Notes: generated by a model not told the origin, from the letters alone. 64,000 nt of DNA from an uncultured Oscillospiraceae bacterium (GCA_934591705.1 CAKTPM010000005.1:972-64971), one strand, 5' to 3'. Positions 5,878-20,932 are shown, counted from the first letter of the stretch. Translations and numbers: made by a program.

Positions 5878-5924
5878 ACTTTCTAACATCTCCTTTTTGT
5901 AATTTGCTTTACTCTCCCGTATAG

Positions 5925-6150: not shown

Positions 6151-6174
6151 TGCCGGGCAGGATATCTGCTGTAT

Positions 6175-7662
6175 TTACTTGTTCTGCATCCGGACGATGG
6201 ATTGGTAGAGGGCCTGGTAGTCCAGGATGTCCACCCGGCCGTCGCCGTTGATGTCCGCGGCCCTGCGCTGCTCTTCAGGCAGGGGGCTCCGGCCGCAAAG
6301 GTGGCCGTAGAGCGCCTGGAGGTCGCCTACATCCACCGCTCCGTTCCCGTTGAGATCCAAAGGATCAGCCGCGACCCTTACGCAGGCCACCGCCGGGGCA
6401 TAGCACGCCTGGCTGGCGCCATCGTCCATTTTACCGGCGTTTTCATCCGCCGCCAGCAGGTAGTAGGTGCCCGGCTTCGTAAAGGTGAGCGTATAGCTCC
6501 CCTGGCCGTCATCCTCCATGGCGCAGGCATCCTCCGCCGGCGCCATCTCCTGCACCGATTTAGTATAAACGGACAGGGCCAAATTGTCAATAGGTTCAAA
6601 GCGCTCTGTGCCCCCGTCCGCCACGGATTGTGTGCCGTACTTCAGGGTCCTTACGGAAAGGGGTACGCCGGCCTTCGCGGCATAGCTGTCCCGGTCGAAG
6701 CAGCAAAAGGCACCCCGGGTATAGAACTGCCAGTCGGTAAACATAGCCAGGTCGATGGCGTCCCCCTCGGACAGGAGGATATAGTCCGCGGTGGAGCCCC
6801 AGCCGGGGCTTTGCAGCGGGAACATATGGTTGCGGTAGTACATGAGGTTTTCATCGTGGCCCCAGAAGTTTTTCATGTAGACACTGCAGCTGCCGCCGAT
6901 GAGCGACAGGGCGAAGGTGGTGCTGCTGTAGGCCGTGGTGCCCCACACGGTCCGCACCTCCACCGGCTCCTGATAGTCGAACAGGCCGCTCTCACCCGTG
7001 CAGCATTCCTCCTCCGGCAGGCCCATGTAGTAGCGCTCCAGCAGGTAGATGTACAGGTGCAGCAGCGTGGGGCGCTCGATGACCGTGCTGCCGGTGTAGG
7101 CGCCGCTGCCGTTTTCCGTTGCGTAGCGATAGAAATCCTTCAGGTCATAGAGCTCCAGGTCGAAGTATCGGAGGGTCACCGGCAGGCGCATAAGAGGCGT
7201 TTCTTCTTCGTCATTGCCCAGCAGGGGGATCCCGTCGCTGGAGAGGGTCACATATATGCTGACGCTCTGGGCCGGCGTCTCCTCATAGCTGTACTGCCTG
7301 GGGTCTCCCGGCGCCGCCGCCTCCACCGTGATGGGCAGGGTGAAGGTCACGCTGTCCTCCCCACAGGAGGCGGTGATCCGCGGGGCGTACTCCCCCGGTG
7401 TCCTGGAGGTAAAATAGTAGATGCCGTCCTGCAGAGGGGTGGTGGCTCCGTTGCCGGTGTTGTCCGCCACCGTGTAGTGCAGCCTGTGGCCGCTGCCATC
7501 CCGGCACACCTCCCCCAGGTCGATCTTCAGCATCCCGCCCTGCCTGACCTGGTAGGACTTCTCCGCGGCGGTGATATGACCCGCCGCGAAAACTGTCTGC
7601 GGCAGGAGCATCAGCAGGACCGTGATGAGACAGAGCACTCTTTTTTTTGCGGTTCTTTTCAT
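6175..7662 (-). CDS. Secreted protein with a C-terminal type-I dockerin and a DUF4430-like segment.
   Basis: Signal peptide MKRTAKKRVLCLITVLLMLLPQTVFAAG. C-terminus DLNGNGAVDVGDLQALYGHL...DINGDGRVDILDYQALYQSI is a duplicated Ca-binding dockerin repeat. An internal GWGSTADYILLSEGDAIDLAMFTDW stretch resembles the DUF4430 C-terminal motif. RBS GGGAGGATAAAAG precedes the ATG. Confidence 0.75.
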   Translation of the reverse strand: MKRTAKKRVLCLITVLLMLLPQTVFAAGHITAAEKSYQVRQGGMLKIDLGEVCRDGSGHRLHYTVADNTGNGATTPLQDGIYYFTSRTPGEYAPRITASCGEDSVTFTLPITVEAAAPGDPRQYSYEETPAQSVSIYVTLSSDGIPLLGNDEEETPLMRLPVTLRYFDLELYDLKDFYRYATENGSGAYTGSTVIERPTLLHLYIYLLERYYMGLPEEECCTGESGLFDYQEPVEVRTVWGTTAYSSTTFALSLIGGSCSVYMKNFWGHDENLMYYRNHMFPLQSPGWGSTADYILLSEGDAIDLAMFTDWQFYTRGAFCCFDRDSYAAKAGVPLSVRTLKYGTQSVADGGTERFEPIDNLALSVYTKSVQEMAPAEDACAMEDDGQGSYTLTFTKPGTYYLLAADENAGKMDDGASQACYAPAVACVRVAADPLDLNGNGAVDVGDLQALYGHLCGRSPLPEEQRRAADINGDGRVDILDYQALYQSIVRMQNK

Positions 7663-7665
7663 CTT

Positions 7666-8160
7666 TTATCCTCCCACTGTGTCGCCGGCATTCACATCCT
7701 TGCCCAGATCACAGGTATAGACCCACCGGACGGCATCGCCCTCCTCCAAGATATACTGCGAGCAGCCGTAGTTGGGAAATTCCCCGTTGACGCTGTACAT
7801 CCAGCCGGAGTCCTTGCCGCCGTCAAATTCATAGAGGTTGCCGATGCCCTTGACATAGGCACTTTTGTATAGGGCTGTCCAGGCAGCGTCCAGGGGGATG
7901 CCCGCCTCCCGGCAGGCTCTCTGCAGGGCGTCATAGACGCTGGTCCCCCGGGGGACCTCCAGCTCTGTCTCCGGCAGGAGCATACCGCTCTGCGGCAGAT
8001 AGGCACGCTTTTCCTCCCGGCATTGCTCCGGATTTTGGGACAGGGTCTCGCAGGAAATAGACAGCGTATAGTGTAAAGTTATTTCACTTGTCTGTTCCTC
8101 TCCGCAGGCGGTAAGCAGGAGCAGCAGAGCGGCGGCCAGCGCCAGTGCCAGCTTTCTCAT
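7666..8160 (-). CDS. DUF4430 (transcobalamin beta-domain-like) lipoprotein.
   Basis: Lipobox LLLLLTAC-GEE. SVYDALQRACREAGIPLDAAW..GNLYEFDGGKDSGWMYSVNGEFPNYGCSQYILEEGDAVRWVYT fits the DUF4430 signature. Its ATG overlaps the upstream stop (ATGA). Confidence 0.75.
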   Translation of the reverse strand: MRKLALALAAALLLLLTACGEEQTSEITLHYTLSISCETLSQNPEQCREEKRAYLPQSGMLLPETELEVPRGTSVYDALQRACREAGIPLDAAWTALYKSAYVKGIGNLYEFDGGKDSGWMYSVNGEFPNYGCSQYILEEGDAVRWVYTCDLGKDVNAGDTVGG

Positions 8161-11100
8161 TGACTGCGCCCCCCTCCTGCCCTTTTGACGGCCTCATAGA
8201 GCGCCTGGTAGTCCAGAATATCCACTTGGCCGTCCCGGTTATAGTCCGCCGCCTCCCGGTAGGCCGTCTCCCGGCCGCTGTAGTCCCCCTCAATGGCGCC
8301 GGTGGACAGATAGGTATAGAGGCATTGCAGGTCAAAGATATCCACCGCGCCGTCGCCGTTCAGGTCCCCCAGGCCGGCGGGCTCTACCCGGATGCTCAGC
8401 AGCGCGGGAACGGAGGTCACCTGGGTGCCGACGCCGTCCTCTCCGTCCTGATAGAGGGAGTAGGCGAAGTGGAGGAGAAGCTCCCCCTCGTCTTCCCGGC
8501 GCAGGGGCTCCCGGGGCCAGGTAAAGTATGCTATCTTTTTTCCGTTTACTGTCCGCTCCGCCGGCAGTGTGCGGGAAAGACCGTTTTCATAGGTGAGGGT
8601 GATCTCCATGCCGGTGGGGTCGAAGTATTCCCCGGCCACATAGGCGGTCTTGTCCGGCTGCCGGGTCACCTCCATGCTTACGATGCTGCTGGCCAGGGCC
8701 ATCAGATGGGCGGAGTCGTTTTTGAAGTAGATGGTGCCGAAGCTGTCGGCAATGGGCGAACAGATGGCATACTGCGCCTGGGCGTCCGCCGGGGTAAAGA
8801 GCACATAGGGCGTTTGATAGACCGTGGTCTTGTCCTTGTCGATAAAGCTCTCCTGAGTGGTCAGCACCGGCTTGGTCTGGCCGGGCGTGTCCTTGAGGAC
8901 CCGCAGCTTTCCGGGGGTGAAGTTGTCAAAGAAGTAGACATACACCGCGCCGTCTCCCTCGCTGTAGGCCGTGGTCAGCAGGCCGGAGGTCTGGGGATAC
9001 CCCTGGGTGGGCACGCTGTAGGCGATCTGCCAGGTCTTGAGGTCGATGACGGTGATGCTGTGGCCGGAATACTGGGTGAACTGCCCCGTGCCGGATACGC
9101 CGATATAGGCGCGGTCCTTGTAAACAACGGGGGTGCAGGTGCTCATGGCGGGCTGGGACGGCGTGCCGCCGTTTTCCAGGGCCACGGCCCGGAGGGAGTC
9201 CTTATCCAGGCGCCATATATCCCCTTGCTTTTGGGGCGCCGCCACGGAGTAGAAGTACCCGCCCTTGGAGGTAAAATAGAACCTCCCATCGGCGTAGGAG
9301 ATGTTGGAGCGGATGTCGCCCCTGAGGTTTTTGATGGAGTCCATCAGCTTTCCGGTGGCCGGGTCGATGCACAGGAGCGCGGCGGTCTCGCTGGTGCAGC
9401 CGCCGGTGCCGTCATCGGTGCCGATCAGCAGATAATCCTCGCACACATAGGCCCCTGCCCAGTAGAAGCCCCCCGGGGAGGTATAGGTCCAGCGGGGCAG
9501 CTTGCTCTCCTTTTCGGAGGCGGGATCCTCGTCCGTGATGCTCAGGCACACCAGGTTTGCCTCCCGGTCCTCCTTATTCCAGAAGCCGGTATAAATGCAG
9601 CCGTCCCAGTAGGTGATGGGACAGTTGGGCTGACCGCCCAGGGCGTCCTGGTAGAGCCAGAGGGACTTGAGGGTGGCGGCGTCAAAGGCCTGGACGCCGC
9701 CGTCGGCAAGGCCGACAAAGAGCATCCCCTGCGCAAAGGTAGCGGAGTTGATGGCAAAGCTGGAGTTGTGGTCCATCTCCCCCTCCGCCACGGTGACGCC
9801 GGAAACGGCATCCAACTTGAAGAGCTTTTTGCCGGAGTAGACGATGAGGTAGTCATAGCCGTCCTCGGTGATCAGGATCGGGCAGCCCACGGCGGCGGTG
9901 TCAAAGCCCTTGCCCAGCTTCGATGCCCAGCTCAGATAGGCGCTCTGTGCGGTAATGGGGGTCTTGTGCTCGATGACGCCGTTGGCCGCATTGTTCCCCC
10001 GGAAGGAGTCCCAGGAGGAGGTGATACCCTCCCCGCAGCGGCTCTCCGGCGCCGCCGTCATGGTGAGCCTCAGGGCGCTGGCGGCCTTCCCGGCGGTAAA
10101 GACCCGGCTCTGTCCCACATAGCCGGGGCAGGTGACCACATAGGTGTAGAGCAGCGTATCCACCAGCAGGTAGCGGCCATCCTCCCGGGGCCACACCCGC
10201 TTGCCGGTGCGGTTATCATATACGCACACCAGCGCATCCGCCAGCGGCTGCCCCGATGGATCCCGCACGGTGAAAAGGGTCTCCACAGCCGCCTTCTTAT
10301 GGAGGGTCAGCGTGTAGGTGCGGCGCTGGGCACCGGCAGGCACGCGCTCACTGCCGGGGGTGATGGAGATGACCTCTTGGTCCTTCTCCGTATCCAACGG
10401 CACGCGTACGGTGAAGCTGCCGGCGGTACCCTGCTCATCGGCCGGCGGCGCATAGCGGCGGCCGTTTACATAGACATAGTAGTTTTCTCCGTAGGGCTCC
10501 AGCGTCAGCACCGCCTCCTCCGTGCTGCGGGGCAGCGTGGCCCGGTAATCGGTGATGTCCCGGTCAAAGCCCGTGACCTCCTCTCCTGCGGTGTTTTTGT
10601 AGGAGAGGGGGGTATCTATACCCTCCGCCGTCAGGCGCAGGCCGTTGGTGTCCTTCAGGGTCAGTGTCTTGTGGAGCGTGAGGATGTAGTCCTGATACTG
10701 CTCCACCTCGCCGCCGCCGTTTTTTGTGGCCCGAAGGGTCAGCGTCTGGGTCTCATCGCCGGTGCGAAGGAAGCTCCGCAGGAATTGGCCGGTGCTCCCC
10801 GTTTCCTTTTGGTTCACGGTGTAGCCGGTCTCCAGGGCGGTGAAGGTGCAGCCAGCGTTTTGCACCCAAATATAGAGGGAGCTGCTTGCATCCGTCACGG
10901 AGACCGTATGGCTGTGGGCCGGGGCCTTGGGCACCTGTAAAAGAACGCTTTTGTTCTTTGCAACGGGCATGGAGCTGGCGGCAAGCCAAAGGCCGTCCAG
11001 TGCATCCTCCGTTTGCGGCGCGGCGGCGGCGAGGGTGAGCCCCGCCTCGGCGGTGAAGGAGCCCTTGGCGTGGTAATAGATCTCCCTATCGGTGACATAG

Positions 11101-12686
11101 GTATAGCCCTCGCCGGGAACCAGCAGGAAGACATCCTGGGTCCCGCCGGCAGAGGCGGGGCCGATCTCGGCCCCGGCGCTGTTGAAGACATGCACCTTGA
11201 CATCCGCAGCATGCTGCACGGTGACGGAGACAGCCGCCGTCTTTTCCACCGTCAGCGTATAGCGCCTGCTCTGCCCGGCATGAGCCACCTGCACCTCAAG
11301 AGCCGTCTCCGGCTCCGTAAGGGCGACGGTCATCCCCTCGCCGCTCCGGAGCGGCTCGCCGTTGACGGAAACGGCATATGCCTCATCAAAGGCAGTGGGC
11401 GTAAGGGTGATTTCATCTGCTGTCACCCGGCAGGTATAGTGCTCCCCCTCCGGCGTAAAGCCGAAATTCTGGGGGATCCCTTGGACGCTGAGCGCCAGGG
11501 CGCTGAGGGTGGGGACCCGCAGGATCTCCATGCGGTACTGCTGATAGGCCGTGTAGCCCTCCTTGGCGTACCGCGCCTCGATCACGGCGGTGCCGCCCCG
11601 GGAGGAGGCATCTAAAAAGTCCTTCAGAACGGCGTTGATGCTTGCCCAGGGGGCTCCGACCTTTTCGATCTCCGCCCCCGCCGTGTTCCGATAGAGCCCC
11701 GCCCAAGACACGGAGTCTGTGTTATAGCTGCCGCCGGTCTTAGGCAGATCTCTGCCGGCAGGGCAATAGATGTAGGCGCTTTTCACCGCGTCCGGCACAT
11801 AGTAGATGCTGCTGTTGTCCGTCCCCTCCGCAGAGGGATAGGCGTCCCCCTCCAGCTTGCCGGAGGTGCGGTGGAGAATGGGCGCTGCCAGCCATTGGGC
11901 GTCCGCCGGGAGCTTCACGGCGGATACCGTCTTGCCCTCCATTTGGACAGCCCCATCGGCCAGCACGGTCATGGTACCCCGGGCGCCGTTGAAGCCGGCG
12001 GTCACCTGAAAATCATAGCGGCCCTCCGCCAATTGGAGCTTCTCTCCGGCGGCGAAGGTAAAACCGGTGCCGTAGGCATTTTTCGCCGCAAAGGCATAGT
12101 CCGTCAGGGGACTGCCGCTCAGGTCGGTGACCGTAAGGCGCAGCGTCTTTTTCTCCGCGTCCAGAACGGCCTGATAGGCCTCCATTTTCTCCTTCAGAGC
12201 CGTGGCCGCGGCATCGTGGGCCTCCGCCGTCAGCAGCGCCGCCTCCGCGGCGGCATACTCCCCGGCGGCGTAGTTTCTCACCGGCTCCTGGGCCTCGGCA
12301 TAGTCCGCCATGGCGCACACCAGCCGGCAGTAGGCCCCGGGATCCTCGGCAGAGAGCTCGGTGAATACGAAGCAGGCGGTGTCAGCGGCGGGAGCGTTCA
12401 GATCGTAGCCGCCCCGGTCGTCAAAGCGGTTATAGTTCCCAGAAACGCCGTCGATCTCGGTGATAAAGCCGTCAACGGCCCCTGTAAAGGTATGTCCCTG
12501 CATCCCGCTGAGGACCTGCCAGACGGTTTCACCGGCGGCAGCGTTCACATACTGCGGGGCGATGACCACCCTTTCACCTGTGACGGCGGCCACCGCCAGG
12601 CGGCTCTCCTCCTCCGCCAGGGCGGCGGGAATGCCCTCCAGGAGCATGAACAGCGCCAGCAGAAGGGCGGTGATCCTCTTTTTCAT
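8157..12686 (-). CDS. Giant (~1510 aa) secreted multidomain protein: N-terminal DUF4430-like module, cadherin-like beta-sandwich repeats, PQQ-type beta-propeller, C-terminal type-I dockerin.
   Basis: Start MKKRITALLLALFMLLEGIPAALA after RBS GAAGGGAGGAAG. N-terminus VWQVLSGMQGHTFTGAVDGFITEIDGVSGNYNRF. Repeated RRYTLTVEK / QDYILTLHK / RTYTLTLHKK motifs. Propeller-type repeats (YFTSKGGYFYSV, WTYTSPGGFYWAGAYV, IGTDDGTGG). Dockerin DLNGDGAVDIFDLQCLYTYL...DYNRDGQVDILDYQALYEAV. Confidence 0.75.
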   Translation of the reverse strand: MKKRITALLLALFMLLEGIPAALAEEESRLAVAAVTGERVVIAPQYVNAAAGETVWQVLSGMQGHTFTGAVDGFITEIDGVSGNYNRFDDRGGYDLNAPAADTACFVFTELSAEDPGAYCRLVCAMADYAEAQEPVRNYAAGEYAAAEAALLTAEAHDAAATALKEKMEAYQAVLDAEKKTLRLTVTDLSGSPLTDYAFAAKNAYGTGFTFAAGEKLQLAEGRYDFQVTAGFNGARGTMTVLADGAVQMEGKTVSAVKLPADAQWLAAPILHRTSGKLEGDAYPSAEGTDNSSIYYVPDAVKSAYIYCPAGRDLPKTGGSYNTDSVSWAGLYRNTAGAEIEKVGAPWASINAVLKDFLDASSRGGTAVIEARYAKEGYTAYQQYRMEILRVPTLSALALSVQGIPQNFGFTPEGEHYTCRVTADEITLTPTAFDEAYAVSVNGEPLRSGEGMTVALTEPETALEVQVAHAGQSRRYTLTVEKTAAVSVTVQHAADVKVHVFNSAGAEIGPASAGGTQDVFLLVPGEGYTYVTDREIYYHAKGSFTAEAGLTLAAAAPQTEDALDGLWLAASSMPVAKNKSVLLQVPKAPAHSHTVSVTDASSSLYIWVQNAGCTFTALETGYTVNQKETGSTGQFLRSFLRTGDETQTLTLRATKNGGGEVEQYQDYILTLHKTLTLKDTNGLRLTAEGIDTPLSYKNTAGEEVTGFDRDITDYRATLPRSTEEAVLTLEPYGENYYVYVNGRRYAPPADEQGTAGSFTVRVPLDTEKDQEVISITPGSERVPAGAQRRTYTLTLHKKAAVETLFTVRDPSGQPLADALVCVYDNRTGKRVWPREDGRYLLVDTLLYTYVVTCPGYVGQSRVFTAGKAASALRLTMTAAPESRCGEGITSSWDSFRGNNAANGVIEHKTPITAQSAYLSWASKLGKGFDTAAVGCPILITEDGYDYLIVYSGKKLFKLDAVSGVTVAEGEMDHNSSFAINSATFAQGMLFVGLADGGVQAFDAATLKSLWLYQDALGGQPNCPITYWDGCIYTGFWNKEDREANLVCLSITDEDPASEKESKLPRWTYTSPGGFYWAGAYVCEDYLLIGTDDGTGGCTSETAALLCIDPATGKLMDSIKNLRGDIRSNISYADGRFYFTSKGGYFYSVAAPQKQGDIWRLDKDSLRAVALENGGTPSQPAMSTCTPVVYKDRAYIGVSGTGQFTQYSGHSITVIDLKTWQIAYSVPTQGYPQTSGLLTTAYSEGDGAVYVYFFDNFTPGKLRVLKDTPGQTKPVLTTQESFIDKDKTTVYQTPYVLFTPADAQAQYAICSPIADSFGTIYFKNDSAHLMALASSIVSMEVTRQPDKTAYVAGEYFDPTGMEITLTYENGLSRTLPAERTVNGKKIAYFTWPREPLRREDEGELLLHFAYSLYQDGEDGVGTQVTSVPALLSIRVEPAGLGDLNGDGAVDIFDLQCLYTYLSTGAIEGDYSGRETAYREAADYNRDGQVDILDYQALYEAVKRAGGGRSQ

Positions 12687-12702
12687 GCTTCTTCCTCCCT
12701 TC

Positions 12703-15036
12703 TCAGTACAGGCAGCAGATCCAGCGCCGATAAAACCGCTGCCAGGGGCTCCACCGGCTCTTACACACCGCAAGAGCCGTCTCGGTCTGCTCTCTCATGC
12801 GTTGGCGCTCTGCCGGGGACACATCCTCATTGCTGTAAAGTGCTTTTGCATTACAGGTAATGATATCTCTTATATTCATCGTTTCCCCTGCCCAGTCCTG
12901 CAGGGCATTCTCCAGCTGGGTAAGGGGCACATTTCGCCAGGGAACGCCGCAAAGGCGGGCCAGGCAGACCACATAGGCGCACATGGCCGCCGCCGCGGCA
13001 TTGGCATCCGGCTGGGTAAAGCGCCTGCTCCTCCTGCGGCAGATGACGCCGCGGCGTATGCAAAGGGCTCCTACGGCACCGGCCAGAAGGATGAGCAGCA
13101 CATAGAGCCAGTCCCTGGGACCCAAATGCAGACGGCTGAAGTAGTCATAGAGGCCCTCCACGAGCTCCTGGAGGTGTACTCCCGACTCCGGGGTCTCCTC
13201 CTCTACCTCATTCTGCCGCTGGGTCTGGGAGAGGGTGCCCTGGCCGTTCTCGGCGGCCGAGCCGCTCAAGAGGGCGTTTTCATCCTCCTCGAACCACAGC
13301 CACTGGGGCTGGGGCATCACATCATAATAGGCGGGCGCGGCCTCGAAGGGCACCCAGCCCACACCGTCCTCATAGTATTCCGCCCAGGCATGGGCATCCT
13401 GCCCGGTAAGGGTCAGGGTGGTCTCCCCGGTGCTGCCCGCTATGGCGGCGGGGGTGACGAGATAGCCCTCCACATAGCGGGCGGGGATGCCGAAATACCG
13501 CAGCATCACCGCCGCCGCGGTGGCGTAGTGGACATCGCAGCCCTGGGCCCCCTCCTGCAAAAGCGCCAGGACGGGGTCCTCCCCCCCGGAGAGGGCCGCG
13601 GGGGTGTCGCTATATTCCACGGCGGTCTCTAAAAACGCCGTGATGCGCCGCTTGGCCTCATAGGAGGTGATGGTCTGGGGGGCCTCCCCCAGCGCCTCCG
13701 AAAGAGCCGTTTGTATCCGGGTGGGAATGGCCAGATAGTTCTCATAGACAAACGCCCGGTAGGTATCCTCAAAGCTCAGATAGTCCTCCAGCCCCTCCTC
13801 CTGCCAGCGCTCATTGAGTCCGGCCAGCAGGGCGTAGGCCTCGGCGGTGAGGTTTTCCGACACGGTATAGGAGCAGTGCTTTTCCCCGAAAAGCCCCCGG
13901 GCAGCGGGCAGGGTATCCCGCAGCTGCGCCGGATCCGCCGCCGGGCTCTCCGGCGTCAGCTCATAGGGGGTGATGCGTCCGGCGCGGCAGGCACCCAGCA
14001 GGCGTACATCCACTGTAAGGGTGTCCTTTCCCTGCCCCAGCAGCTCGGAGAGAGCCGCCAGCTGAGAGAAGCCGTTATATCCCCGCAGGTGCCAGGCATA
14101 GAGGGACGCATGGTCCGCCGTCATGTCCCGGGCCTCGGCATCGGCCCACCCGGCGGAGGTGTAGCGCTGCCCCACAAAGCTGCGGAGATAGAGCGGCGTC
14201 GGCTCCGAGAGGGTCACCTCCAGCATGGGGGTCTCAGCATCTCTCTCCGGCAGACGGGTCAGGTCTCCCTCCGGCAGCGCCTGCCGGGCGGGCTCGTAGC
14301 GCAGGGCGTGCACCGCCCGGTGCAGGGCGTTGGCCGCTCTCTGCGTGTCCACGCTCACCCTTTGGGAAAGGGTCAGGCCCACCGCCGTGATAAGCGCCGC
14401 CAGGACGATCAGCAGTGCCAGGGCCGCGGGCTGTGCAGGCACCGGTCCCTCCTGGGCGCGCTCCTCTGTGAAGAGCAGCACGCTGCAGCCCAAAAGCAGC
14501 AGGATCAGCCAGCCGCTTCCGACGCTCCAGCGGAGGGAAAAGATGACCGCCGCCGCAAAAACTGCCCAGCTCGCCCGGGGCCGCAGCGCCGCTAAGGCGC
14601 CGAGGCAAAGCCCCAAGACCCCGCAGGCCGGCAGCTGTGCCCACAGCAGGGACACTGCCTCGCAGGCGTAAGGGGAATAGTCCAGGGCGTCGATATCCCG
14701 CCGCCAGGCGCAGAATTGATTGGCCAGCTGCAAAAAGCCGTTTGCCGCCCCATGGGAGAAAATCCCGCAGAAGCAGATGACCGCCAGGAGAAGTCCCATC
14801 GGCAGCCAGAGCAGCCGGTCCCGCCGGGCGGAAAAGAGCGCCGCTGCCGCCGCGGCCAGGGCCCCGACGCAGAGGGACGCGGGGCTTCCCAGTGGAAAGC
14901 CATCGGCCAGCAGGCCCACGGTGCCGCCGAAAAGCAGCAGTGCGCCCAGCACCCGCAGAAGGGCGCCGGGAGACAGCACGCTGCGCGCTATTGGTTTTTC
15001 CGGGGCTGCTGTGAACCCTCCGGCGGTTTTTTTCAT
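12703..15036 (-). CDS. Transglutaminase-like domain membrane protein (TgpA-like partner of DUF58/MoxR).
   Basis: Multiple N-terminal TM segments. Transglutaminase core GQCDVHYATAAAVMLRYFGIPARYVEGY. RBS GGAGTAAGAGGA before the ATG. Confidence 0.8.
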   Translation of the reverse strand: MKKTAGGFTAAPEKPIARSVLSPGALLRVLGALLLFGGTVGLLADGFPLGSPASLCVGALAAAAAALFSARRDRLLWLPMGLLLAVICFCGIFSHGAANGFLQLANQFCAWRRDIDALDYSPYACEAVSLLWAQLPACGVLGLCLGALAALRPRASWAVFAAAVIFSLRWSVGSGWLILLLLGCSVLLFTEERAQEGPVPAQPAALALLIVLAALITAVGLTLSQRVSVDTQRAANALHRAVHALRYEPARQALPEGDLTRLPERDAETPMLEVTLSEPTPLYLRSFVGQRYTSAGWADAEARDMTADHASLYAWHLRGYNGFSQLAALSELLGQGKDTLTVDVRLLGACRAGRITPYELTPESPAADPAQLRDTLPAARGLFGEKHCSYTVSENLTAEAYALLAGLNERWQEEGLEDYLSFEDTYRAFVYENYLAIPTRIQTALSEALGEAPQTITSYEAKRRITAFLETAVEYSDTPAALSGGEDPVLALLQEGAQGCDVHYATAAAVMLRYFGIPARYVEGYLVTPAAIAGSTGETTLTLTGQDAHAWAEYYEDGVGWVPFEAAPAYYDVMPQPQWLWFEEDENALLSGSAAENGQGTLSQTQRQNEVEEETPESGVHLQELVEGLYDYFSRLHLGPRDWLYVLLILLAGAVGALCIRRGVICRRRSRRFTQPDANAAAAAMCAYVVCLARLCGVPWRNVPLTQLENALQDWAGETMNIRDIITCNAKALYSNEDVSPAERQRMREQTETALAVCKSRWSPWQRFYRRWICCLY

Positions 15037-15054
15037 TCCTCTTACTCCTGCCTG

Positions 15055-16197
15055 TCAGCAAAGATCGATTTCCGCCAGCATCCCGGCGTAATGGGTCTCA
15101 TCAAAGCTGTATACGCGGCCCGCTCCGCTCTCCCCGCCGCCGCACAATAGGGACACTAAGTTCTCCTCCGGGCACAGCGCCGCCGGGGGCGGCGCCTCGG
15201 CCAGGCCCACAAAGATGACCTTGGTGTTGTTTTCCAGCCCATAGAGCCGGCGGTACATTTCCGCTGCCGTTTCCCCGCCGCAGGACGGCGAGGCGCTCAG
15301 AAGCTGCGGCAGCAGCTCATAGAATTCTTCCTTTTCCCGGGCCTCGAAGGTCACGAGCTCCCCTGCCCCGCGATCCCAGGCGGCACGGCAGCTGACCCCC
15401 TGCTCCAAAAGCTCCCGGCACAGGGTGGCCATCACCTCGGCCATGGCATCGCTCTGCCGGGGCGTGGGGCTGCCGCCCCGCTCCCAGAGGATCAGCACCG
15501 CCTGCTCCAGAGGCAGAGCCGGGTCGCGGACAATGAGCTTGTCCATTTTGGAGGACAGCTTCCAGTGGATCTGCCGGAGCCCGTCGCCCGGGACATATTC
15601 CCGGATCTGATAGGGCTCGGAGTAGTCATAGCCGGGCCGATCCGGGGCATAGCGGTCGCTTTCCCGGGAAATACCGCTGCGCTGGGGCAGCAGCAGCTCC
15701 ATGGGAAAAAGCGCCGGCTGCACGGCCAGCTGCAGACTGCAGGCCGCCTTTACCGGAAGGCGGCAGATGCCTAAGGGGTCGCAGACCTCCAGGCGCAGCA
15801 GCTGGATCGTGAATAGGCCGCACTGGGCGCTCTCCAGCGCCAGCACCGCCTCTCCCCGGCCCCTGGGCGGGAGGGAGAGAACAGCGGTGCAGTCCGCCGT
15901 CTCGCCGGTAAGCCCGTTCTCCAGCCGGCAGCAGCAGCGCACCCGGGGCAGCGGCAGGAGGGATGTATTTTCCCCCCGGAGCAGGATGACCGCCTTTTTC
16001 CCCTTCTCCGCCGCCCGGGGCAGCCGGATGTCCAGCTCCACCGCTCTGCGGGCCGGCAGGGTCAGCAGGATGCCCAGAAGCGGCACCAGCACCGTAAGGA
16101 GCGCCAGCGCCAGCGTCCATCCTCCGGGGGCGGTGACCCACAGGGCCGCTGCTGATAGGATGGTCAATAGCCAGCCGGCGGCTGCAGGGACGCTCAC
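15055..16197 (-). CDS. DUF58 family protein (von Willebrand-type partner of MoxR). GTG start overlapping the MoxR stop (GTGA).
   Basis: DUF58 motif YQIREYVPGDGLRQIHWKLSSKMDKLIVRDP. No in-frame ATG for about 200 codons after the MoxR stop; the GTG sits immediately at the stop. Confidence 0.75.
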   Translation of the reverse strand: MSVPAAAGWLLTILSAAALWVTAPGGWTLALALLTVLVPLLGILLTLPARRAVELDIRLPRAAEKGKKAVILLRGENTSLLPLPRVRCCCRLENGLTGETADCTAVLSLPPRGRGEAVLALESAQCGLFTIQLLRLEVCDPLGICRLPVKAACSLQLAVQPALFPMELLLPQRSGISRESDRYAPDRPGYDYSEPYQIREYVPGDGLRQIHWKLSSKMDKLIVRDPALPLEQAVLILWERGGSPTPRQSDAMAEVMATLCRELLEQGVSCRAAWDRGAGELVTFEAREKEEFYELLPQLLSASPSCGGETAAEMYRRLYGLENNTKVIFVGLAEAPPPAALCPEENLVSLLCGGGESGAGRVYSFDETHYAGMLAEIDLC

Positions 16198-17132
16198 AGC
16201 GCCGCCACCTGGGGGACCGCCACCTGCTCCCGGATGCGGTAGGTGATCTCCTCCGCCGTGAGCTTGCCCAGCCGGGCCTTGGCGCTGAGCACCAGGCGGT
16301 GGGCGCATACGGCGTCAAACACCTCGTAGACATCCTCCGGCGTCACAAAATCCCGGTCCCGGACAAAACCGTGGGCCTTCGCCATCCGGCACAGGGCCAG
16401 AGCCCCCCGGGGGCTGATGCCCAGGTCAATATATTCGTTGCTGCGTGTGGCGCTCACCAGCTCCACGATGTAGTCATAGATGCTCTCGGCGATATGTACC
16501 TGCCTGGCCTGCTCCGTCAGCTGCAGGAGCTCCTCTTTGGTCACCACGCCCTCCAGACGATCCAGCGGGTTTTCATGGTGGCGCTCCCGGAGGATCTCCA
16601 GCTGGCTCTGCCGGTCCGGATATCCCATGGTGGTGCGGATCATGAAGCGGTCCAGCTGGGAGGAGGGCAGCAGCTGCGTGCCCGCCGAGCCCACGGGGTT
16701 TTGCGTGGCCAGCACCACAAAGGGCTCCGGCAGCGGATAGGTTTGGCCGTCCACCGTGACCTGGTATTCCTCCATGGCCTCCAGCAGAGCCGACTGGGTC
16801 TTGCTGGAGGTGCGGTTGATCTCGTCGGCCAGGAGCAGATTGGTCATCACCGCGCCGCTTTTGAAGTCAAAGGCGCCGGTGGCCTTGTTGTAAACGGAAA
16901 AGCCGATAATGTCAGAGGGCATGGTGTCGGAGGTGAACTGCACCCGGCGGCTGTCCAGCCCCAGGGTCCTGGCAAAGGCCAGGGCCATGGTGGTCTTGCC
17001 CACGCCGGGAACATCCTCCAGGAGCACATGGCCCTGGGCCAGCACCGCCATGAGGACCTTTTCCGTTACCTCTTCCTTACCGATGACCACGGAGTTGACC
17101 TGCTGCAGGATCCTTCCGGTAGTCTCATTCAT
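16194..17132 (-). CDS. MoxR-family AAA+ ATPase.
   Basis: Walker A GVGKTT, Walker B LLADEINR, and overall MoxR pattern (VIGKEEVTEKVLMAVLAQGHVLLEDVPGVGKTTMALAFA...ILATQNP). Confidence 0.85.
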   Translation of the reverse strand: MNETTGRILQQVNSVVIGKEEVTEKVLMAVLAQGHVLLEDVPGVGKTTMALAFARTLGLDSRRVQFTSDTMPSDIIGFSVYNKATGAFDFKSGAVMTNLLLADEINRTSSKTQSALLEAMEEYQVTVDGQTYPLPEPFVVLATQNPVGSAGTQLLPSSQLDRFMIRTTMGYPDRQSQLEILRERHHENPLDRLEGVVTKEELLQLTEQARQVHIAESIYDYIVELVSATRSNEYIDLGISPRGALALCRMAKAHGFVRDRDFVTPEDVYEVFDAVCAHRLVLSAKARLGKLTAEEITYRIREQVAVPQVAAL

Positions 17133-18294
17133 GGACATCACTTCCTTTTTTCTTTCTCACGGCAAGCACGCCGCAGGTCCCTGCCGCCAGCAGGACGGCG
17201 GGGAGGATATAGACAGCCGCTCCGGGCCTTTTATCGGCGGCCGGGACCGCCTCCGCCGCTTGCTGCGTCCACTGGGGCGGCTTGGCGGCGTCCTTCATCT
17301 GAAAAAAACTGTCTTCACCGATCCGGAGGCGCCGCAGGGCCTCCAGGGCCTGCATCGCCTGCTCCGTGGCCATGGGGTCGGCGGTGTCGGTATGGGCAAA
17401 GCTGCCGTCCTCCGTGCGGAAGCGCAGCAGCGCCGCTACCGGGTCGCCGCCGGGCTTTATAAATCGTGCCTCCCGCTCCGGGTCAAGACCCAGGGCGCAA
17501 AGCGCCAGGATCACCTGGGCACTGCTCTCGGCGCTCTCCGCCCCCCAGGAGCTGAAGCCGCCGTTTTCCAGCTGCAGCGCTGAGAGGGCCGTCAAACCTC
17601 GGTCGATGGCCTCCCCATACTGATCGGCATAGGGGGCCAGGGCCTGCAGGGCCATGGCGGTGATGTCCGCGTCCGCCGGGCCGCCATCCAGGGAAAAGCC
17701 GCCGTCCGCCGCCTGGGCGGCGAGGATGGCCCCGAGCATATCCTCCCGGGTATAGACCGCACTCTCCCCGGCGGCATAGCCGCCGGAATCCACAGTCAAA
17801 AGGGCGTATATCCAGCCATTGAGTCCCTGGGCGCCGGGGCCGCCCTCCACCACGCAGTTATAGCAGCCGTCGGCAATAAGGTCGATGGGAGTGCCGTCGG
17901 AGTGCGTGCCGAAGGCGGATGCATCCCCGCCCAGGGCCGTGACAGCCAGGGCGATGCGGTGCCACTCCGTGGCCTTATAAAGGGAAAGACCTTCCCCGGC
18001 ATAAGCGCTCTCCACATAGCGCCGCAGAGCCACCAGATAGGTATCATAATCCTCGGGGATGCCGCTGCGGGCCATGGCGATAGCAAACCAATCCGCCACT
18101 GCCGAGTCCCCTGCCGGCAGGACCTCCTGCCGGGAGAGGAGGGCGCCGCCCTGGGCGTACCGGGCGCGCTGCGCCTCCGCCGCCTGCAGGATCAGTGCCG
18201 CGGGGTCCTCCTGCGGCGCCGCCCCCCGGGCCGATCCCGGCATAAGGCAGGCACACAGAAGCAGCAGCGCCAGCACTTTCAGATATTTTTTCAT
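17125..18294 (-). CDS. Secreted prenyltransferase/squalene-oxidase-repeat (alpha/alpha-toroid) protein with a C-terminal TM anchor. Transcobalamin alpha-domain-like candidate.
   Basis: Signal peptide MKKYLKVLALLLLCACLMPGSARG. Repeats DGGFSLDGGPADADITAMALQAL / ENGGFSSWGAESAESSAQVILALCALG / EDGSFAHTDTADPMATEQAMQAL. C-terminal hydrophobic stretch AVYILPAVLLAAGTCGVLAV then KKK. ATG overlaps the upstream stop (ATGA). Confidence 0.65.
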   Translation of the reverse strand: MKKYLKVLALLLLCACLMPGSARGAAPQEDPAALILQAAEAQRARYAQGGALLSRQEVLPAGDSAVADWFAIAMARSGIPEDYDTYLVALRRYVESAYAGEGLSLYKATEWHRIALAVTALGGDASAFGTHSDGTPIDLIADGCYNCVVEGGPGAQGLNGWIYALLTVDSGGYAAGESAVYTREDMLGAILAAQAADGGFSLDGGPADADITAMALQALAPYADQYGEAIDRGLTALSALQLENGGFSSWGAESAESSAQVILALCALGLDPEREARFIKPGGDPVAALLRFRTEDGSFAHTDTADPMATEQAMQALEALRRLRIGEDSFFQMKDAAKPPQWTQQAAEAVPAADKRPGAAVYILPAVLLAAGTCGVLAVRKKKGSDVHE

Positions 18295-20273
18295 GTTTCC
18301 TCTTCCTCCTCCCGGCCGCAAATGGTACACCTTCCGTCCGCATAGGTATGCTCTCCGGTCTTCGGCAGCACATCCGTCACGGTGCCGGAGACCGCCGTAC
18401 CGTCGATGGTGCCGGCGGCCCGGTAGATGATGCAGCCGTCCTGTCCGCAGGTGGGCTCCCGGCGGTCGATGACCTCCAGGGTGCATGGGATGCTCCGGTG
18501 AGCGGCGCATCGGGTGCAGGTGAACTCCGCGGTGCAGCTCTCTGCGCTCTCCCGCTGCACCGGGCCCATCTTGTAATCGTGGCCCAGGGCCGGGATGCTC
18601 CGGGTACTTATCTCGCCGCATTCCGTGCAGGTGAGGGTCATTTCCCCGGGCGCCTCGCAGGTGGGCGCCGCCGCGACCGTCTCCGCCCAGGTGTGGACAT
18701 GGGCCTCCTGCGCCTGGCCGCAGACCGCGCATTTTCCGTTTTCAAAAACATGCTGCGGCGTATAGGTGCCCCCCAGCCATGTGCCGCAGTAGAAGGGTAA
18801 GGTCCCCCGATTGCCGGCGGCCGCCGCGCCGCCGATATCCTTTCCGTAGGCCAGGGTGAACACCAAGCTCAGCACATCGCCGTCATCCAGGTAGACATTG
18901 CTCAAGCTCTGGCCGGGATAATAGCCGTTGACGGAGAACATCCAGCCGGAGCCCACGGTGTAGTCAAATTCCCCCAAGGAGTCCTTATAGGCGGCCGGGC
19001 GCTTGATCTCCCAGCCGTCCAGGGTTAGGAGATTTTTAAGCTCCGCGGGGATCTGCGCATCGGCAAAGGCGCCGCCTCCGCTGATACGCTGCAGATAATA
19101 GCCCACCTCTTTTGTGCCCTTGGCGGAAACGGTAAAGCCCATATCCTCCAAAAAGCGCGCCGCCAGATAGGAGGCCGCCTCCCCCTGGCGCACATCGTAG
19201 GTCTCGCTGTCCACGATCCCCATGCCCAGGGTGGTGAGATCCAGCCGCAGCGTGGCCGCGCCGATCACCTGACCCTCCTCGGAAAAGAGGTAGTCGATGG
19301 TGTATTTTTTATAGGAGGAGCTGCCGTTATCGTCCCAGGCGATGACCTCCACGGTGTGGCGGATGCTGTCCCCCACCGTGCCCGGCTTCAGATAGAGCGG
19401 ATACTCCACCGTGCTGCCGCCGGTATACTGGGTGATCTCCACACCGTCCAGCAGCACCCGCAGGTGATTGTGATAGATGGCGCCCCGGCTGTTATAGGCG
19501 GTGACCTGCAGGGTGAAGTTCTTGTTTCTTACGGTGTTGCCCTCGTCCCGCAGATTGGTGACGATGGTGGGGGGGTCCTCTCCCACCTGGGCATTGTCGC
19601 CATCCGCCATGGGGGCCTGGTAATGCACGGTCTTTGTAACAGTCTGCAGGAGCGTGCCGTCCTGATAGACCAGCAGGGTGAAAACATTCTTCCCCTGCTG
19701 CAGGGCGGCGGAAAACCGCCCGCCGGCGCTGCCGCTGAGCCGCCGACCCTCTAAGAGGACCCGGACAGAGGCGCCCTTCTCCGCATTTTGCAGGTAGGCA
19801 TAAAACTGCAGCTTTCCCTCCGGCAGCTCACCGTAGGGGATGGTCCTGTTCTTAAGATCCGTCACCAGCTGCATCCGGGGCTTCTCGGTGTCGGTCTTAT
19901 CCTTGTCGGCGGGGGAGCCCTCCTGCTCCTTCTTCTCCTCGCCCCCGGCGCCGCCGCCGGGCTGCTGGGTCTCGGTCTGCTGCTCCTTGGGCTCCGGCTT
20001 ATCCTGGGGCTGCTGGGACTCCCCCTCCCGGTTTTCCTCCGGGGCCTGGGTCTCCTCCGGTGCCGCGGCGTCATACCGAAGGGGCACCGGCCGCAGGTTC
20101 ACGCCGCGAAAGGCCCGATCCGCCGGGGCGGCGGGCGGCGTATGGGCAGCACCTCGCAGCAGCAGCGCTGCCGCCGCCAAAAGCGCGGCCAAGAGCACCA
20201 GCCCGGATAGCCGGAGTATATACGGTTTTTTATTTCTGCGATCGATCTTCATTCCCATTCCGGCCTTTTTCAT
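18291..20273 (-). CDS. Signal-anchored membrane protein with a disordered P/E/Q linker, a DUF4430 domain and a Cys-rich (4x CxxC) C-terminal tail.
   Basis: N-terminal KKPYILRLSGLVLLAALLAAAALLL TM segment. DUF4430-like ASYLAARFLEDMGFTVSAKG...EFDYTVGSGWMFSVNGYYPGQSLSNVYLDDGDVLSLVFT. CAVCG, CTECG, CTRC, CTICG motifs near the C-terminus. Confidence 0.7.
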   Translation of the reverse strand: MKKAGMGMKIDRRNKKPYILRLSGLVLLAALLAAAALLLRGAAHTPPAAPADRAFRGVNLRPVPLRYDAAAPEETQAPEENREGESQQPQDKPEPKEQQTETQQPGGGAGGEEKKEQEGSPADKDKTDTEKPRMQLVTDLKNRTIPYGELPEGKLQFYAYLQNAEKGASVRVLLEGRRLSGSAGGRFSAALQQGKNVFTLLVYQDGTLLQTVTKTVHYQAPMADGDNAQVGEDPPTIVTNLRDEGNTVRNKNFTLQVTAYNSRGAIYHNHLRVLLDGVEITQYTGGSTVEYPLYLKPGTVGDSIRHTVEVIAWDDNGSSSYKKYTIDYLFSEEGQVIGAATLRLDLTTLGMGIVDSETYDVRQGEAASYLAARFLEDMGFTVSAKGTKEVGYYLQRISGGGAFADAQIPAELKNLLTLDGWEIKRPAAYKDSLGEFDYTVGSGWMFSVNGYYPGQSLSNVYLDDGDVLSLVFTLAYGKDIGGAAAAGNRGTLPFYCGTWLGGTYTPQHVFENGKCAVCGQAQEAHVHTWAETVAAAPTCEAPGEMTLTCTECGEISTRSIPALGHDYKMGPVQRESAESCTAEFTCTRCAAHRSIPCTLEVIDRREPTCGQDGCIIYRAAGTIDGTAVSGTVTDVLPKTGEHTYADGRCTICGREEEEET

Positions 20274-20301
20274 CCAGTTTCTTATGTCCGGTGCTGTCTT
20301 C

Positions 20302-20570
20302 TGTAAAAAAGAACGCCGCCTTGCAAGGCAGGGCGGGCGTGCCGATCATCCTCCGAAGAAATGAGGTCGGGCGGAAGCGGCACGGCTTCATGCCGCTTCC
20401 GCCCTATGGAAAAGCTGACGGCCCTGCGTCGACCGTCCTGGCTTAGCAAAGGGGATGCAGCGCATCGTTTCACCTGACGAAAAAGGCCGACTGTCCAAGG
20501 ACAGCCGGCACCTGACACATAAAAACGGCGCTGACGAATTCGCCAGCGCACACATCTCTTTTCGTCACAA
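20302..20570 (-). terminator. Series of intrinsic-terminator-like hairpins inside the operon leader: 20536-20570, 20488-20520, 20410-20438, 20302-20337.
   Basis: Minus strand: GCGCTGGCGAATTCGTCAGCGC+CGTTTTT; GCCGGCTGTCCTTGGACAGTCGGCC+TTTTT; GACGGTCGACGCAGGGCCGTC+AGCTTTTCC; CGCCCTGCCTTGCAAGGCGGCG+TTCTTTTTT. The last one is about 30 nt before the ATG at 20273. Confidence 0.5.
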
Positions 20571-20639
20571 CGATGAAGCGCCGCTGTAAACAAGCTCTCG
20601 ACCGTGCAATTCTACTGCCCTCGCGCCATGAAACTCTCG

Positions 20640-20875
20640 TTTCTGCGTACATGACCTACCTTCTCAGAGCTTGCGCTCCAATGGCGGTATTACCCAGCGG
20701 CTCAAAGCCGTTTCGGTCACTTCCTTGCGCTCACAGTGCCGTCCGCAGTGGGTTTCGGTACCCATATTCCTTTTAGACTGCTGCCTGATGAGGTGTCATC
20801 TTTGCGGCAAACAGTCACACGGCGTCACAGAACTTTTTCGATATTCTATTGGGTGCAGAGCTCCCCTCCACACCA
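20640..20875 (-). ncRNA. Candidate second cobalamin-riboswitch-like element in the leader of the DUF4430/dockerin operon.
   Basis: Downstream of a consensus promoter, the minus-strand sequence AAAAGGAAUAUGGGUACCGAAACCCACUGCGGACGGCACUGUGAGCGCAAGGAAG contains the B12-box-like core (GGAAU..GGGU..GAAACCC..GCGGACGGCACUGUGA). It is weaker than the 5980-6150 element, but the two share the CGG(U/C)CACUGUGA core. Confidence 0.4.
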
Positions 20876-20881
20876 TGAAAA

Positions 20882-20910
20882 ACTATACACCAAATCCCGT
20901 GGTATGTCAA
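20882..20910 (-). promoter_or_regulatory. Sigma-A-type promoter TTGACA-17-TATAGT for the DUF4430/dockerin operon leader.
   Basis: Minus strand TTGACAtaccacgggatttggtgTATAGT, located immediately after the cobC stop. Confidence 0.6.
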
Positions 20911-20932
20911 GGGAGCTCCGCAAATATTCTCC

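Follow-up and report, generated by a model that had tools for sequence, protein, structure and literature searches.

Here we describe a gene cluster on a 64,000-nucleotide (nt) stretch of DNA from an uncultured Oscillospiraceae bacterium (GCA_934591705.1 CAKTPM010000005.1:972-64971; hereafter the window, in whose coordinates all positions are given). We read it, with a probability of about 75%, as a Gram-positive gut system for the capture of corrinoids (the vitamin B12 family) that is placed under a divergent cobalamin-type riboswitch and would work as a relay feeding an importer of the energy-coupling factor (ECF) type, ECF-CbrT. The cluster comprises eight minus-strand genes, P1 to P8, and a ninth, P9, on the same strand (Table 1). 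P1 and P7 carry SLBB domains, P2 is a toroid protein, P3 to P5 form a MoxR-DUF58-transglutaminase trio, P6 and P8 end in dockerins, and P9 is a giant with a DUF4465/BtuJ-type head. The reading rests on these domain families, on anchoring signals, on the conservation and covariation of the leader RNA, and on conserved synteny with B12 riboswitches and with ECF-CbrT; from these we infer every step of ligand binding, hand-off and regulation.

The operon is preceded by a leader of 659 nt (20274-20932, minus strand), which opens with a sigma-70-type promoter-like site; shuffled sequence yields a mean of 0.5 such sites, and an equivalent TTGACT..TATAAT block is kept in orthologous leaders. The leader holds an aptamer with a B12-box-like core, GGGCAGUAGAAUUGCAC (20604-20620, minus strand), and in permissive scans the Rfam model RF00174 (clan CL00101; gathering score 31.5 bits) matched it from end to end (20588-20837, minus strand, model positions 1-189) with 15.7-20.2 bits. 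At the gathering threshold no cobalamin riboswitch was found in the window or in four close orthologous loci. That threshold alone would have wrongly discarded the leader, for which permissive scans, comparative alignment and a covariance model of our own were needed. Among the closest orthologous leaders the flanks have diverged and a block of about 270 nt is retained, near-invariant at the junctions GGCACUGUGAGCGCAAG, GCCAUUG, GAGAAGGUA and GUCAGGAGAAUUGCAC, with helices that vary by compensatory change. RNAalifold placed 76 pairs on 11 orthologues, 26 of them with compensatory double changes. Our covariance model (R1), built from nine variant leader sequences only, scores 169.9 bits on the window aptamer, finds same-strand matches ahead of the operon in about 30 further loci, and cross-hits two bona fide RF00174 sites, in L046 (31.6 bits with R1, 120 with RF00174) and L037 (25.5 and 88 bits). 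In an alignment of 31 sequences, whose fitting to the R1 model favours the following figures, 95.1% of cells are paired (72.9% in column shuffles and 38-51% in slid structures), compensatory change is seen at 52 of 68 pairs, and covariation scores 0.487 where controls give 0.05-0.08. Downstream of the aptamer, the tandem terminator-like hairpins likely form the expression platform, a transcriptional OFF switch. Homology to RF00174 and genomic role converge here: R1 links the variant to accepted sites, and bona fide riboswitches occupy the equivalent position in five of seven distant loci. On sequence and covariation, the element is best classified within the cobalamin-riboswitch lineage, as a divergent member whose predicted platform would act by transcription termination. 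An initial annotation of this DNA had proposed a structured leader of about 650 nt with a B12-box-like core; length, core and structure held up, but the RF00174 search stayed below the gathering score.

The same data could describe a riboswitch relative that has degenerated or been re-specialised: it would have ceased to sense cobalamin and might respond to another corrinoid or to nothing, so that B12 would not regulate the operon in this species. Besides the low RF00174 score, the leader contains non-canonical pairs and altered core motifs (AAGGAA for GGGAA; GAAUUGCAC for GACCUGCC), and the whole Oscillospiraceae clade is sub-threshold, including the leader of the isolate Brotocaccenecus cirricatena (L020), at 23.3 bits. 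Decay, however, would not keep 95% pairing and 52 of 68 covarying pairs over 31 sequences, near-invariant junctions and conserved tandem terminators, nor the RF00174 architecture end to end with R1 cross-hits to bona fide sites. Because purifying selection on the aptamer structure has been strong, decay is improbable, and we hold loss or change of cobalamin sensing to be unlikely. Between the tandem terminators and the P1 start, about 200 nt (20300-20480) are absent from three orthologous leaders (L007, L009 and L010); this window-specific stretch holds a third terminator-like hairpin and a long G+C-rich perfect hairpin (20369-20404).

Related loci were collected by tracing P2 homologues to their contigs and by a genome-collection scan that added 80 further loci, onto which all window proteins were mapped by tBLASTn. 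The closest named locus is that of Oscillibacter sp. UBA8280, and most come from gut metagenome-assembled genomes of Oscillospiraceae or other Clostridia. The order P1-P2-MoxR-DUF58-transglutaminase-P6(-P7) recurs in about 45 loci across Clostridia, and about 30 simpler loci have P1-P2-P7 without the MoxR trio. Bona fide RF00174 riboswitches, by the Rfam gathering threshold, lie upstream on the operon strand in those five of seven distant loci with 32-120 bits (L046, Pseudogracilibacillus, 120; L068, Clostridium cadaveris, 115; L037, 88; L070, 48; L030, 32.3), so that riboswitch-led homologous operons span Clostridia and Bacillales. With both models combined, same-strand matches upstream of the operon were found in 28 of 44 MoxR-type loci and in 6 of the 37 simple ones; of the others, many are truncated upstream or lay outside the Rfam scan.

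In distant loci these operons also contain genes for an ECF importer. The C. cadaveris riboswitch is followed by a DUF4430 protein, a Big_2/PQQ-propeller protein, a P1 homologue (Cadherin-like and DUF4430), a P2 homologue (Prenyltrans), MoxR, DUF58, transglutaminase, a P7 homologue, CbiQ/EcfT, a double ATP-binding cassette (ABC) ATPase and an ECF S-component. The last matches 6FNP chain A (CbrT) with E=3.7e-6, this being the sole locus tested for CbrT similarity. The CbiQ, ABC-ABC and S genes follow the P7 homologue in L046, L030 and L037 as well; in L046, where the MoxR trio comes after the ECF genes, the linkage has thus outlasted a rearrangement. Sister contig L002, from the window's species, has behind P9 a gene for a 296-aa (amino acid) EcfT that shares 38% identity with CbiQ of C. 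cadaveris (E=1e-72), and then one for an 881-aa fusion of two ABC domains and an ECF S-component (precomputed Pfam). Both cobalamin and cobinamide are substrates of ECF-CbrT, and hemin does not compete with them (PMC5997447; 6FNP). The central proposal of the initial annotation, a riboswitch-led surface system for cobalamin capture, is thus strengthened by the bona fide riboswitches in five of seven homologous loci, the ECF-CbrT linkage, the same EcfT and ABC-S genes in the sister contig and the DUF4465 head of P9.

P1, P2 and P7 are the candidate core of the binder. P7 gives a full-length match to DUF4430 (PF14478, the transcobalamin-like SLBB domain; cut-off 23.8 bits), at 68 bits and E=1e-18 over profile positions 1-71 of 72, and its homologue directly precedes the ECF genes in distant loci. 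P1 consists of an N-terminal transmembrane helix (aa 12-30), an acidic/proline linker, a beta-sandwich region, the SLBB domain and a cysteine-rich C-terminus. Its DUF4430 score in Pfam is sub-threshold (21.3 versus 23.8 bits); HHalign aligns the P1 family with the P7 family at 99.3% probability (E=9e-21, aa 345-480, with an insert of about 30 aa), and the P1 homologues in L009 and L068 match PF14478. By these profile comparisons, aa 345-480 of P1 constitute a genuine DUF4430 domain. A P1 match of at least 300 aa is present in 73 of 81 related loci, directly upstream of P2 in most. The start of P2 overlaps the stop of P1 by 4 nt, a longer upstream P2 reading frame being out of context. P2 alone matched only SQHop_cyclase_C (PF13243) in Pfam, with E=0.0066; most P2 homologues among the matches listed (1329 in all) carry Prenyltrans (PF00432), and the family profile reached SQHop_cyclase_C structures in the PDB at 1.6e-9. 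An AlphaFold2 model is helical throughout, with an overall confidence (pLDDT) of 66 and block means above 80 for aa 181-300. Profile and model agree in assigning P2 to the alpha/alpha toroids, the fold class to which the alpha domain of transcobalamin also belongs, and P1 and P2, translationally coupled, probably act together as a split transcobalamin-like binder.

Profile and structure comparison found no specific link of P2 to the alpha domain of transcobalamin or intrinsic factor. Single-sequence and profile searches of the PDB with P7 and P2 did not reach transcobalamin, the P7 profile hit only ubiquitin-like chains, and no ligand-bound bacterial DUF4430 structure was retrieved. The earlier description of a separate protein with the transcobalamin alpha fold is therefore kept as to the toroid and dropped as to specific transcobalamin kinship. 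Likewise, of the at least four DUF4430 modules it had counted, two or three are supported: those of the lipoprotein (P7, lipobox LLTAC) and of the signal-anchored protein (P1) were recovered, the P6 N-terminus gives a short match, and P8 fell away. The P1 C-terminus (18291-18790, aa ~490-653) is rich in paired cysteines with repeated CxxC and TC..C motifs and has no family match; it may form an extracellular module stabilised by metal or by disulfides.

P9 opens with a TTG start and runs off the left end of the window. In sister contigs of the same species, which come from metagenomes of the human gut (Hadza samples among them), it lies on the same strand after P8 and measures 2100-2360 aa (full length in L002:10807-17718, 2303 aa). 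Behind a DUF4465 head come beta-rich domains, GLUG domains and a long stalk of helical repeats; the C-terminus of the L002 protein (...NASKTGD, then a hydrophobic segment, then KRKEEE) can be read as a sorting signal of the sortase type. The head scores 120.8 bits against DUF4465 (PF14717; cut-off 25) and matches B12-bound structures (9HMU, 1.8e-8; 9FCT/BtuJ1, 1.9e-6; 9I2L/BtuJ2, 4.4e-4), the alignment with 9HMU covering the C-terminal half, in which the DE and HI loops that contact B12 are located. DUF4465 proteins from eight distant lineages bind B12 experimentally (PMC13398666). Between the window and L001, L002 and L004 the head (4919-5761) is 59% identical and the remainder of P9 95% identical. 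Over 283 residues the head is 61% identical (E=1e-125) to a protein of Xylanibacter caecicola (Prevotellaceae; P0288), whose gene adjoins a TonB-dependent receptor in a Bacteroidota btu-like locus; identity of this order across phyla points to horizontal exchange of a B12-binding module. Together these comparisons suggest that the head is mobile, undergoing cassette-like replacement and inter-phylum transfer. In relatives, domains are both split and fused relative to the window P9: the head is a standalone 386-aa gene beside a separate 1426-aa GLUG protein in L093:10001-11161, and a 310-aa DUF4465 plus dockerin protein in L092:5596-6528, with further DUF4465-dockerin fusions in P0249, P0253 and P0329.

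Such a head, held well away from the membrane by a very long stalk, raises the alternative that the surface proteins mainly sequester or store corrinoids, as piracy or an extracellular reservoir, and do not form an obligatory relay. Recent work on Bacteroides thetaiotaomicron describes BtuJ1 as a reservoir of the vitamin outside the cell and several Btu lipoproteins as non-essential for transport (10.1101/2025.07.01.662609, PMC13616437), and about 30 related loci make do with P1, P2, P7 and ECF genes, without giant or dockerin proteins. Uptake is nevertheless the better fit, because co-transcription and conserved synteny tie the surface proteins to the ECF importer under one riboswitch; storage as the main role seems quite improbable to us. 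The two roles are compatible, not mutually exclusive, and computation does not separate them.

The 290-nt spacer between P8 and P9 holds a candidate second, short cobalamin-riboswitch-like element, followed by a long 12-bp hairpin with a T-run. RF00174 gives it 18.7 bits (E=0.008 in a 351-nt search) and R1 12.8 bits. It is nearly the same in sister strains (99% column identity), which leaves no usable covariation, and its minimum-free-energy folding z-score is not significant.

P6 and P8 are secreted proteins with C-terminal type-I dockerins (Dockerin_1, 39.6 and 41.6 bits), as the initial annotation had stated; both termini show the duplicated calcium-binding F-hand module of PF00404. In P6, Pfam further identified Cadherin-like, CarboxypepD_reg, a PQQ_2/BamB-type beta-propeller and Big_3. 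The propeller is the most conserved part (47-73% identical across loci, compared with 25-55% for the N-terminal region); in the PDB it found only a weak PQQ-dehydrogenase match and no detectable similarity to BtuG or BtuK. The P6 N-terminus aligns with DUF4430/SLBB by HHalign (92%, E=7e-7) over only 52 columns, lacks a Pfam match and lacks the clade-defining hairpin insert, which an earlier study names as the B12-contacting feature of transcobalamin-like SLBB domains (PMC1796856). P8 comprises an Ig-like domain, a central alpha/beta domain (aa 133-345), a beta-sandwich and the dockerin. For DUF4430 in P8, profile-profile comparison gave less than 1% probability, and only a local WGHDENLMYYRNH...GDAID motif resembles the C-terminal strands of that domain. 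The central domain of P8 (6640-7270, minus strand) is strongly conserved over more than 600 homologues, with an invariant WGHDxNLxYxRNH...GxTxDY; it matches no Pfam family and had no informative structural neighbour among the top matches. P8-family relatives (L091:6581-8632, P0203; and P0149) combine an N-terminal cohesin (PF00963) with a C-terminal dockerin and adjoin a P6-like dockerin giant in the same operon, which makes cohesin-dockerin pairing within the operon family plausible.

Between the binder genes and P6 lie P3, P4 and P5, three of the eight operon genes that the initial annotation, describing the other five proteins, had not mentioned. They encode a MoxR-type AAA+ ATPase (AAA_3, 191.7 bits; AAA_lid_2, 75.2 bits), a DUF58 protein (29.2 bits) and a transglutaminase-like protein (Transglut_core, 73 bits); all scores exceed the cut-offs, the genes are consecutive, and their order is kept in about 45 loci, with P3 54-86% identical across related loci. 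P5 has about seven transmembrane helices, about six of them N-terminal and one at aa 642-660, around an extracytoplasmic core with the Cys and His motifs GCDVHYAT and HAWAEYY. A defence-system reading of the trio was rejected, as a PADLOC scan returned nothing meaningful. The trio is firmly linked to the capture system. The sole literature parallel found is the bifidobacterial PFNA cluster (kinase-FN3-MoxR-DUF58-transglutaminase), in which these three families are found with a large FN3 surface protein (PMC8430577).

That parallel, together with the Ig, cadherin-like and GLUG modules and dockerins in P6, P8 and P9, is what would favour a PFNA-like or cellulosome-like apparatus for adhesion or host interaction built on cohesin-dockerin pairing, with the B12-type domains incidental. 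We regard this as extremely unlikely: Pfam and NCBIfam scans found no carbohydrate-active or adhesin-specific catalytic domains, PADLOC gave no defence matches, and every conserved partner over about 80 loci (SLBB, toroid, ECF-CbrT, cobalamin riboswitch) is linked to B12. Within a corrinoid-capture system the trio would be a conserved accessory, with assembly, maturation or cross-linking of the surface complex as its most likely task. A bolder version, to which we assign a low probability, makes it the energy-coupling or maturation device of a Gram-positive 'corrinosome', in which a cytoplasmic AAA+ motor, acting through two membrane proteins, would assemble the complex or drive corrinoid release from P1/P2 to the ECF S-component, and whose outer layer would be held by cohesin-dockerin pairing and tipped with a BtuJ head from Bacteroidota. 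If true, the trio would be the functional counterpart of the Gram-negative TonB-driven release, here from very tight binding by P1/P2.

Corrinoid capture would then proceed as follows, the anchoring modes being read from hydropathy and sequence. At high intracellular cobalamin, the 230-nt aptamer would bind it and the tandem terminators would stop transcription; at low cobalamin, read-through of the operon would yield exported proteins fixed at different depths of the envelope. Furthest out would stand P9, a wall-anchored stalk with a BtuJ-type B12-binding head, expressed behind its own riboswitch-like element. P6 and P8 would be tethered by their dockerins, presumably plugged into cohesins encoded elsewhere. 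P1 and P2 would sit at the membrane by their anchors as the probable joint binder, with P7 as an SLBB lipoprotein at the membrane surface. The relay would hand corrinoid inward to an ECF importer of the CbrT type, whose genes in this species lie, by the sister contig, just beyond the left edge of the window. The neighbouring CobU, CobT, CobS and CobC, enzymes of established function, would in this lineage complete or remodel imported precursors of the cobinamide type.

Several points weigh against a corrinoid-capture system. Ligand binding and B12-dependent regulation are themselves predictions. The leader stays below the Rfam membership score (15.7-20.2 against 31.5 bits) and departs from consensus at several core positions, so its ligand specificity could be changed or lost. 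The nearest structural relatives of P2 are terpene cyclases and prenyltransferases, not transcobalamin, and neither the P8 core domain nor most of P6 has an assigned function. No cohesin was matched among the operon proteins, P9 and the other scanned open reading frames (ORFs) of the window (18 + 10), and the ECF genes lie outside the window. The cobTUSC genes were rejected as a conserved partner: none of about 80 other related loci has cob genes within 10 kb, which makes their adjacency lineage-specific.

A further objection is that related parts serve heme elsewhere. According to a preprint (bioRxiv 10.1101/864751), a Lactobacillus sakei Lsa1836-1840 deletion mutant is impaired in heme uptake and complemented in trans, and this system has the same SLBB, toroid and ECF ingredients, Lsa1839 and Lsa1840 being transcobalamin beta- and alpha-like; ECF heme importers exist (PMC7299338). 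Capture of heme or another tetrapyrrole in place of corrinoids would leave cobalamin riboswitches, bona fide in distant homologues, in control of the operon family, and cobTUSC next door. It also sits poorly with a C. cadaveris S-component that matches CbrT, for whose transporter hemin is no competitor (PMC5997447), and with a P9 head from a family shown to bind B12 (PMC13398666). We consider it very unlikely for the present locus, and continue to favour corrinoids as the ligand.

The core of this idea has a precedent. Burroughs, Balaji, Iyer and Aravind (2007) predicted that SLBB and toroid surface proteins encoded with CbiO/CbiQ are B12 scavengers (PMC1796856). Their systems share with ours an exported SLBB protein, a partner toroid, paralogous SLBB proteins in one operon, Ig and beta-propeller fusions and an ECF-type linkage; theirs was a prediction without experiments, a keyword look-up found no mention of dockerins, and in contrast to the systems it describes, toroid and SLBB are here separate, translationally coupled genes. 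The same two folds, a toroid and a C-terminal SLBB/DUF4430 domain, sandwich cobalamin in mammalian transcobalamin, intrinsic factor and haptocorrin (PMC1796856; DUF4430 assignment in these proteins from PMC4350170). The L. sakei five-gene ECF system likewise has a split transcobalamin-like pair (beta, SLBB; alpha, toroid) with an ECF transporter, but mutant analysis assigns it to heme, and it has no dockerins, MoxR trio or DUF4465 (10.1101/864751). ECF-CbrT of Lactobacillus delbrueckii (Santos et al. 2018, PMC5997447) resembles C. cadaveris-type operons in its CbrT-like S, EcfT and EcfAA' components; it was characterised without extracellular accessory proteins, whereas here a dedicated, group-I-like importer with its own T and A genes is joined by up to nine surface or accessory proteins.

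Another close system is the B. thetaiotaomicron Btu relay (BtuB-BtuG, BtuH, BtuJ, BtuK; PMC13616437, PMC13398666), which also places several surface B12 binders under cobalamin riboswitches, including a pair of them in one locus, and shares a DUF4465/BtuJ-type domain and a beta-propeller protein (BtuG and BtuK are propellers). Unlike it, the present system is Gram-positive, without outer membrane, BtuB or TonB, and is anchored by transmembrane helices, lipid, dockerins and a sortase signal; its importer is ECF and not BtuB/BtuFCD, and the Bacteroides system as described has neither SLBB nor toroid proteins. The C-terminal type-I dockerins of P6 and P8 recall the cellulosomes and amylosomes of Clostridia and Ruminococcaceae, but the cargo would be cofactor-binding proteins and not carbohydrate-active enzymes, and no scaffoldin or cohesin occurs among the scanned window ORFs. 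The bifidobacterial PFNA operon has the same three families in the same order beside large surface proteins (PMC8430577); here, by contrast, the trio lies inside a B12-riboswitch-controlled operon and stays with ECF and SLBB genes despite reordering (L046).

A literature search found no work linking dockerins or cohesins with B12 capture, and four elements appear undescribed: the dockerin-tethered members, the embedded MoxR-DUF58-transglutaminase trio, a riboswitch clade below the Rfam threshold, and the combination, in a Gram-positive bacterium, of a BtuJ head with a giant anchored in the wall, which a 2026 review flags as uncharacterised (PMC13616437). The novelty claimed initially for a dockerin-displayed B12 assembly accordingly stands for dockerin display, but not for the combination of split binder and transporter, predicted in 2007 (PMC1796856).

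Competition for B12-family cofactors shapes gut communities, and its surface-capture mechanism is known almost entirely from Bacteroides. The locus and its roughly 80 relatives provide a concrete, testable Gram-positive architecture with transmembrane-helix, lipid, dockerin and sortase-type anchoring, and cultured carriers exist in B. cirricatena (CLA-AA-H272; L020, L022) and C. cadaveris (JCM 1392; L068). It would give the widespread, enigmatic MoxR-DUF58-transglutaminase triad its first functional context and extend cohesin-dockerin display beyond carbohydrate-active enzymes, and the resemblance of the BtuJ head to a Prevotellaceae protein suggests that B12-binding modules are exchanged between phyla. 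Because the Oscillospiraceae clade of cobalamin-type riboswitches escapes the Rfam threshold, B12 regulons in these abundant gut bacteria are probably under-annotated.

Table 1. Coordinates of the operon, its leader, P9 and the neighbouring cob genes in the window.
Feature	Position	Strand	Description
cobT	23094-24239	-	nucleotide-loop assembly/salvage
cobU	22564-23097	-	nucleotide-loop assembly/salvage
cobS	21842-22588	-	nucleotide-loop assembly/salvage
Small CobU-like ORF	21487-21837	-	between cobS and cobC
cobC-type phosphatase gene	20933-21514	-	stop just upstream of the operon promoter
Sigma-70-type promoter-like site	20882-20910	-	TTGACA-17-TATAGT; 11/12 consensus matches; just downstream of the cobC stop
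Divergent cobalamin-riboswitch-type aptamer	20598-20827	-	230 nt; RNA helices P1-P6, branched P6 extension
Tandem intrinsic-terminator-like hairpins (two)	20528-20549 and 20486-20509	-	with T-runs; positionally conserved in orthologous leaders
Third terminator-like hairpin	20316-20331	-	in window-specific leader stretch of about 200 nt
P1	18291-20252/20273	-	signal-anchored surface protein; DUF4430 aa 345-480 (nt 18813-19220)
P2	17125-18294	-	389 aa, exported, predicted alpha/alpha toroid; signal peptide and C-terminal transmembrane anchor
P3	16194-17138	-	cytoplasmic MoxR-type AAA+ ATPase
P4	15055-16197	-	DUF58 protein; two N-terminal transmembrane helices
P5	12703-15036	-	polytopic transglutaminase-like membrane protein
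P6	8157-12686	-	1509-aa secreted giant, signal peptide; SLBB-like N-terminus nt 12429-12584; type-I dockerin nt 8199-8372
P7	7666-8160	-	164-aa lipoprotein; DUF4430 nt 7714-7947
P8	6175-7662	-	495 aa, secreted, signal peptide; type-I dockerin nt 6202-6357
Candidate second short cobalamin-riboswitch-like element	6038-6177	-	P8-P9 spacer
P9	1-5878	-	TTG start at 5878; signal peptide; DUF4465/BtuJ-type head nt 4991-5527

A survey of start codons and ribosome-binding sites, together with the ORF table, confirmed the eight tightly coupled minus-strand genes proposed initially (20273 to 6175): neighbours overlap by 4-14 nt or are separated by 3-18 nt, and all eight have good ribosome-binding sites. 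The Pfam matches expected for them were also obtained (DUF4430, Dockerin_1, PQQ_2 and Cadherin-like, with Prenyltrans PF00432 in the P2 family); NCBIfam added no useful names for the eight operon proteins. Large plus-strand ORFs at 1700-5902 (1400 aa), 6202-7872 and 8145-10940 each overlap a real gene and were rejected as antisense artefacts of the high-GC minus-strand genes, since the called genes have a third-position G+C content (GC3) above 0.8; the first, antisense to P9, has no Pfam match. Directly upstream on the operon strand, CobT, CobU, CobS and a CobC-type phosphatase were found at 20933-24239, as the earlier reading of the locus had it.

Between cobS and cobC, the 116-aa ORF at 21487-21837 (minus strand) has a P-loop-like N-terminus, IIGGAFQGK, and its match to CobU (E=1.4e-10) is confined to the C-terminal third of that protein. 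The ORF does not duplicate the full-length cobU nearby; it is perhaps a remnant, or else a truncated or minimal gene of the CobU type. The other scanned ORFs of the window are housekeeping genes (spoIIIA, dnaE, hprK, uvrD, xseA); among spoIIIA, dnaE, hprK and uvrD sit two ORFs, 28924-29880 (minus strand, 318 aa) and 38157-39740 (plus strand, 527 aa), with no Pfam match at E<=1e-5. Unrelated to the operon are a T-box leader at 52200-52427 (minus strand, 122.9 bits), a tRNA at 62884-62954 (minus strand) and a thiamine pyrophosphate (TPP) riboswitch at 63685-63796 (minus strand, 66.3 bits).

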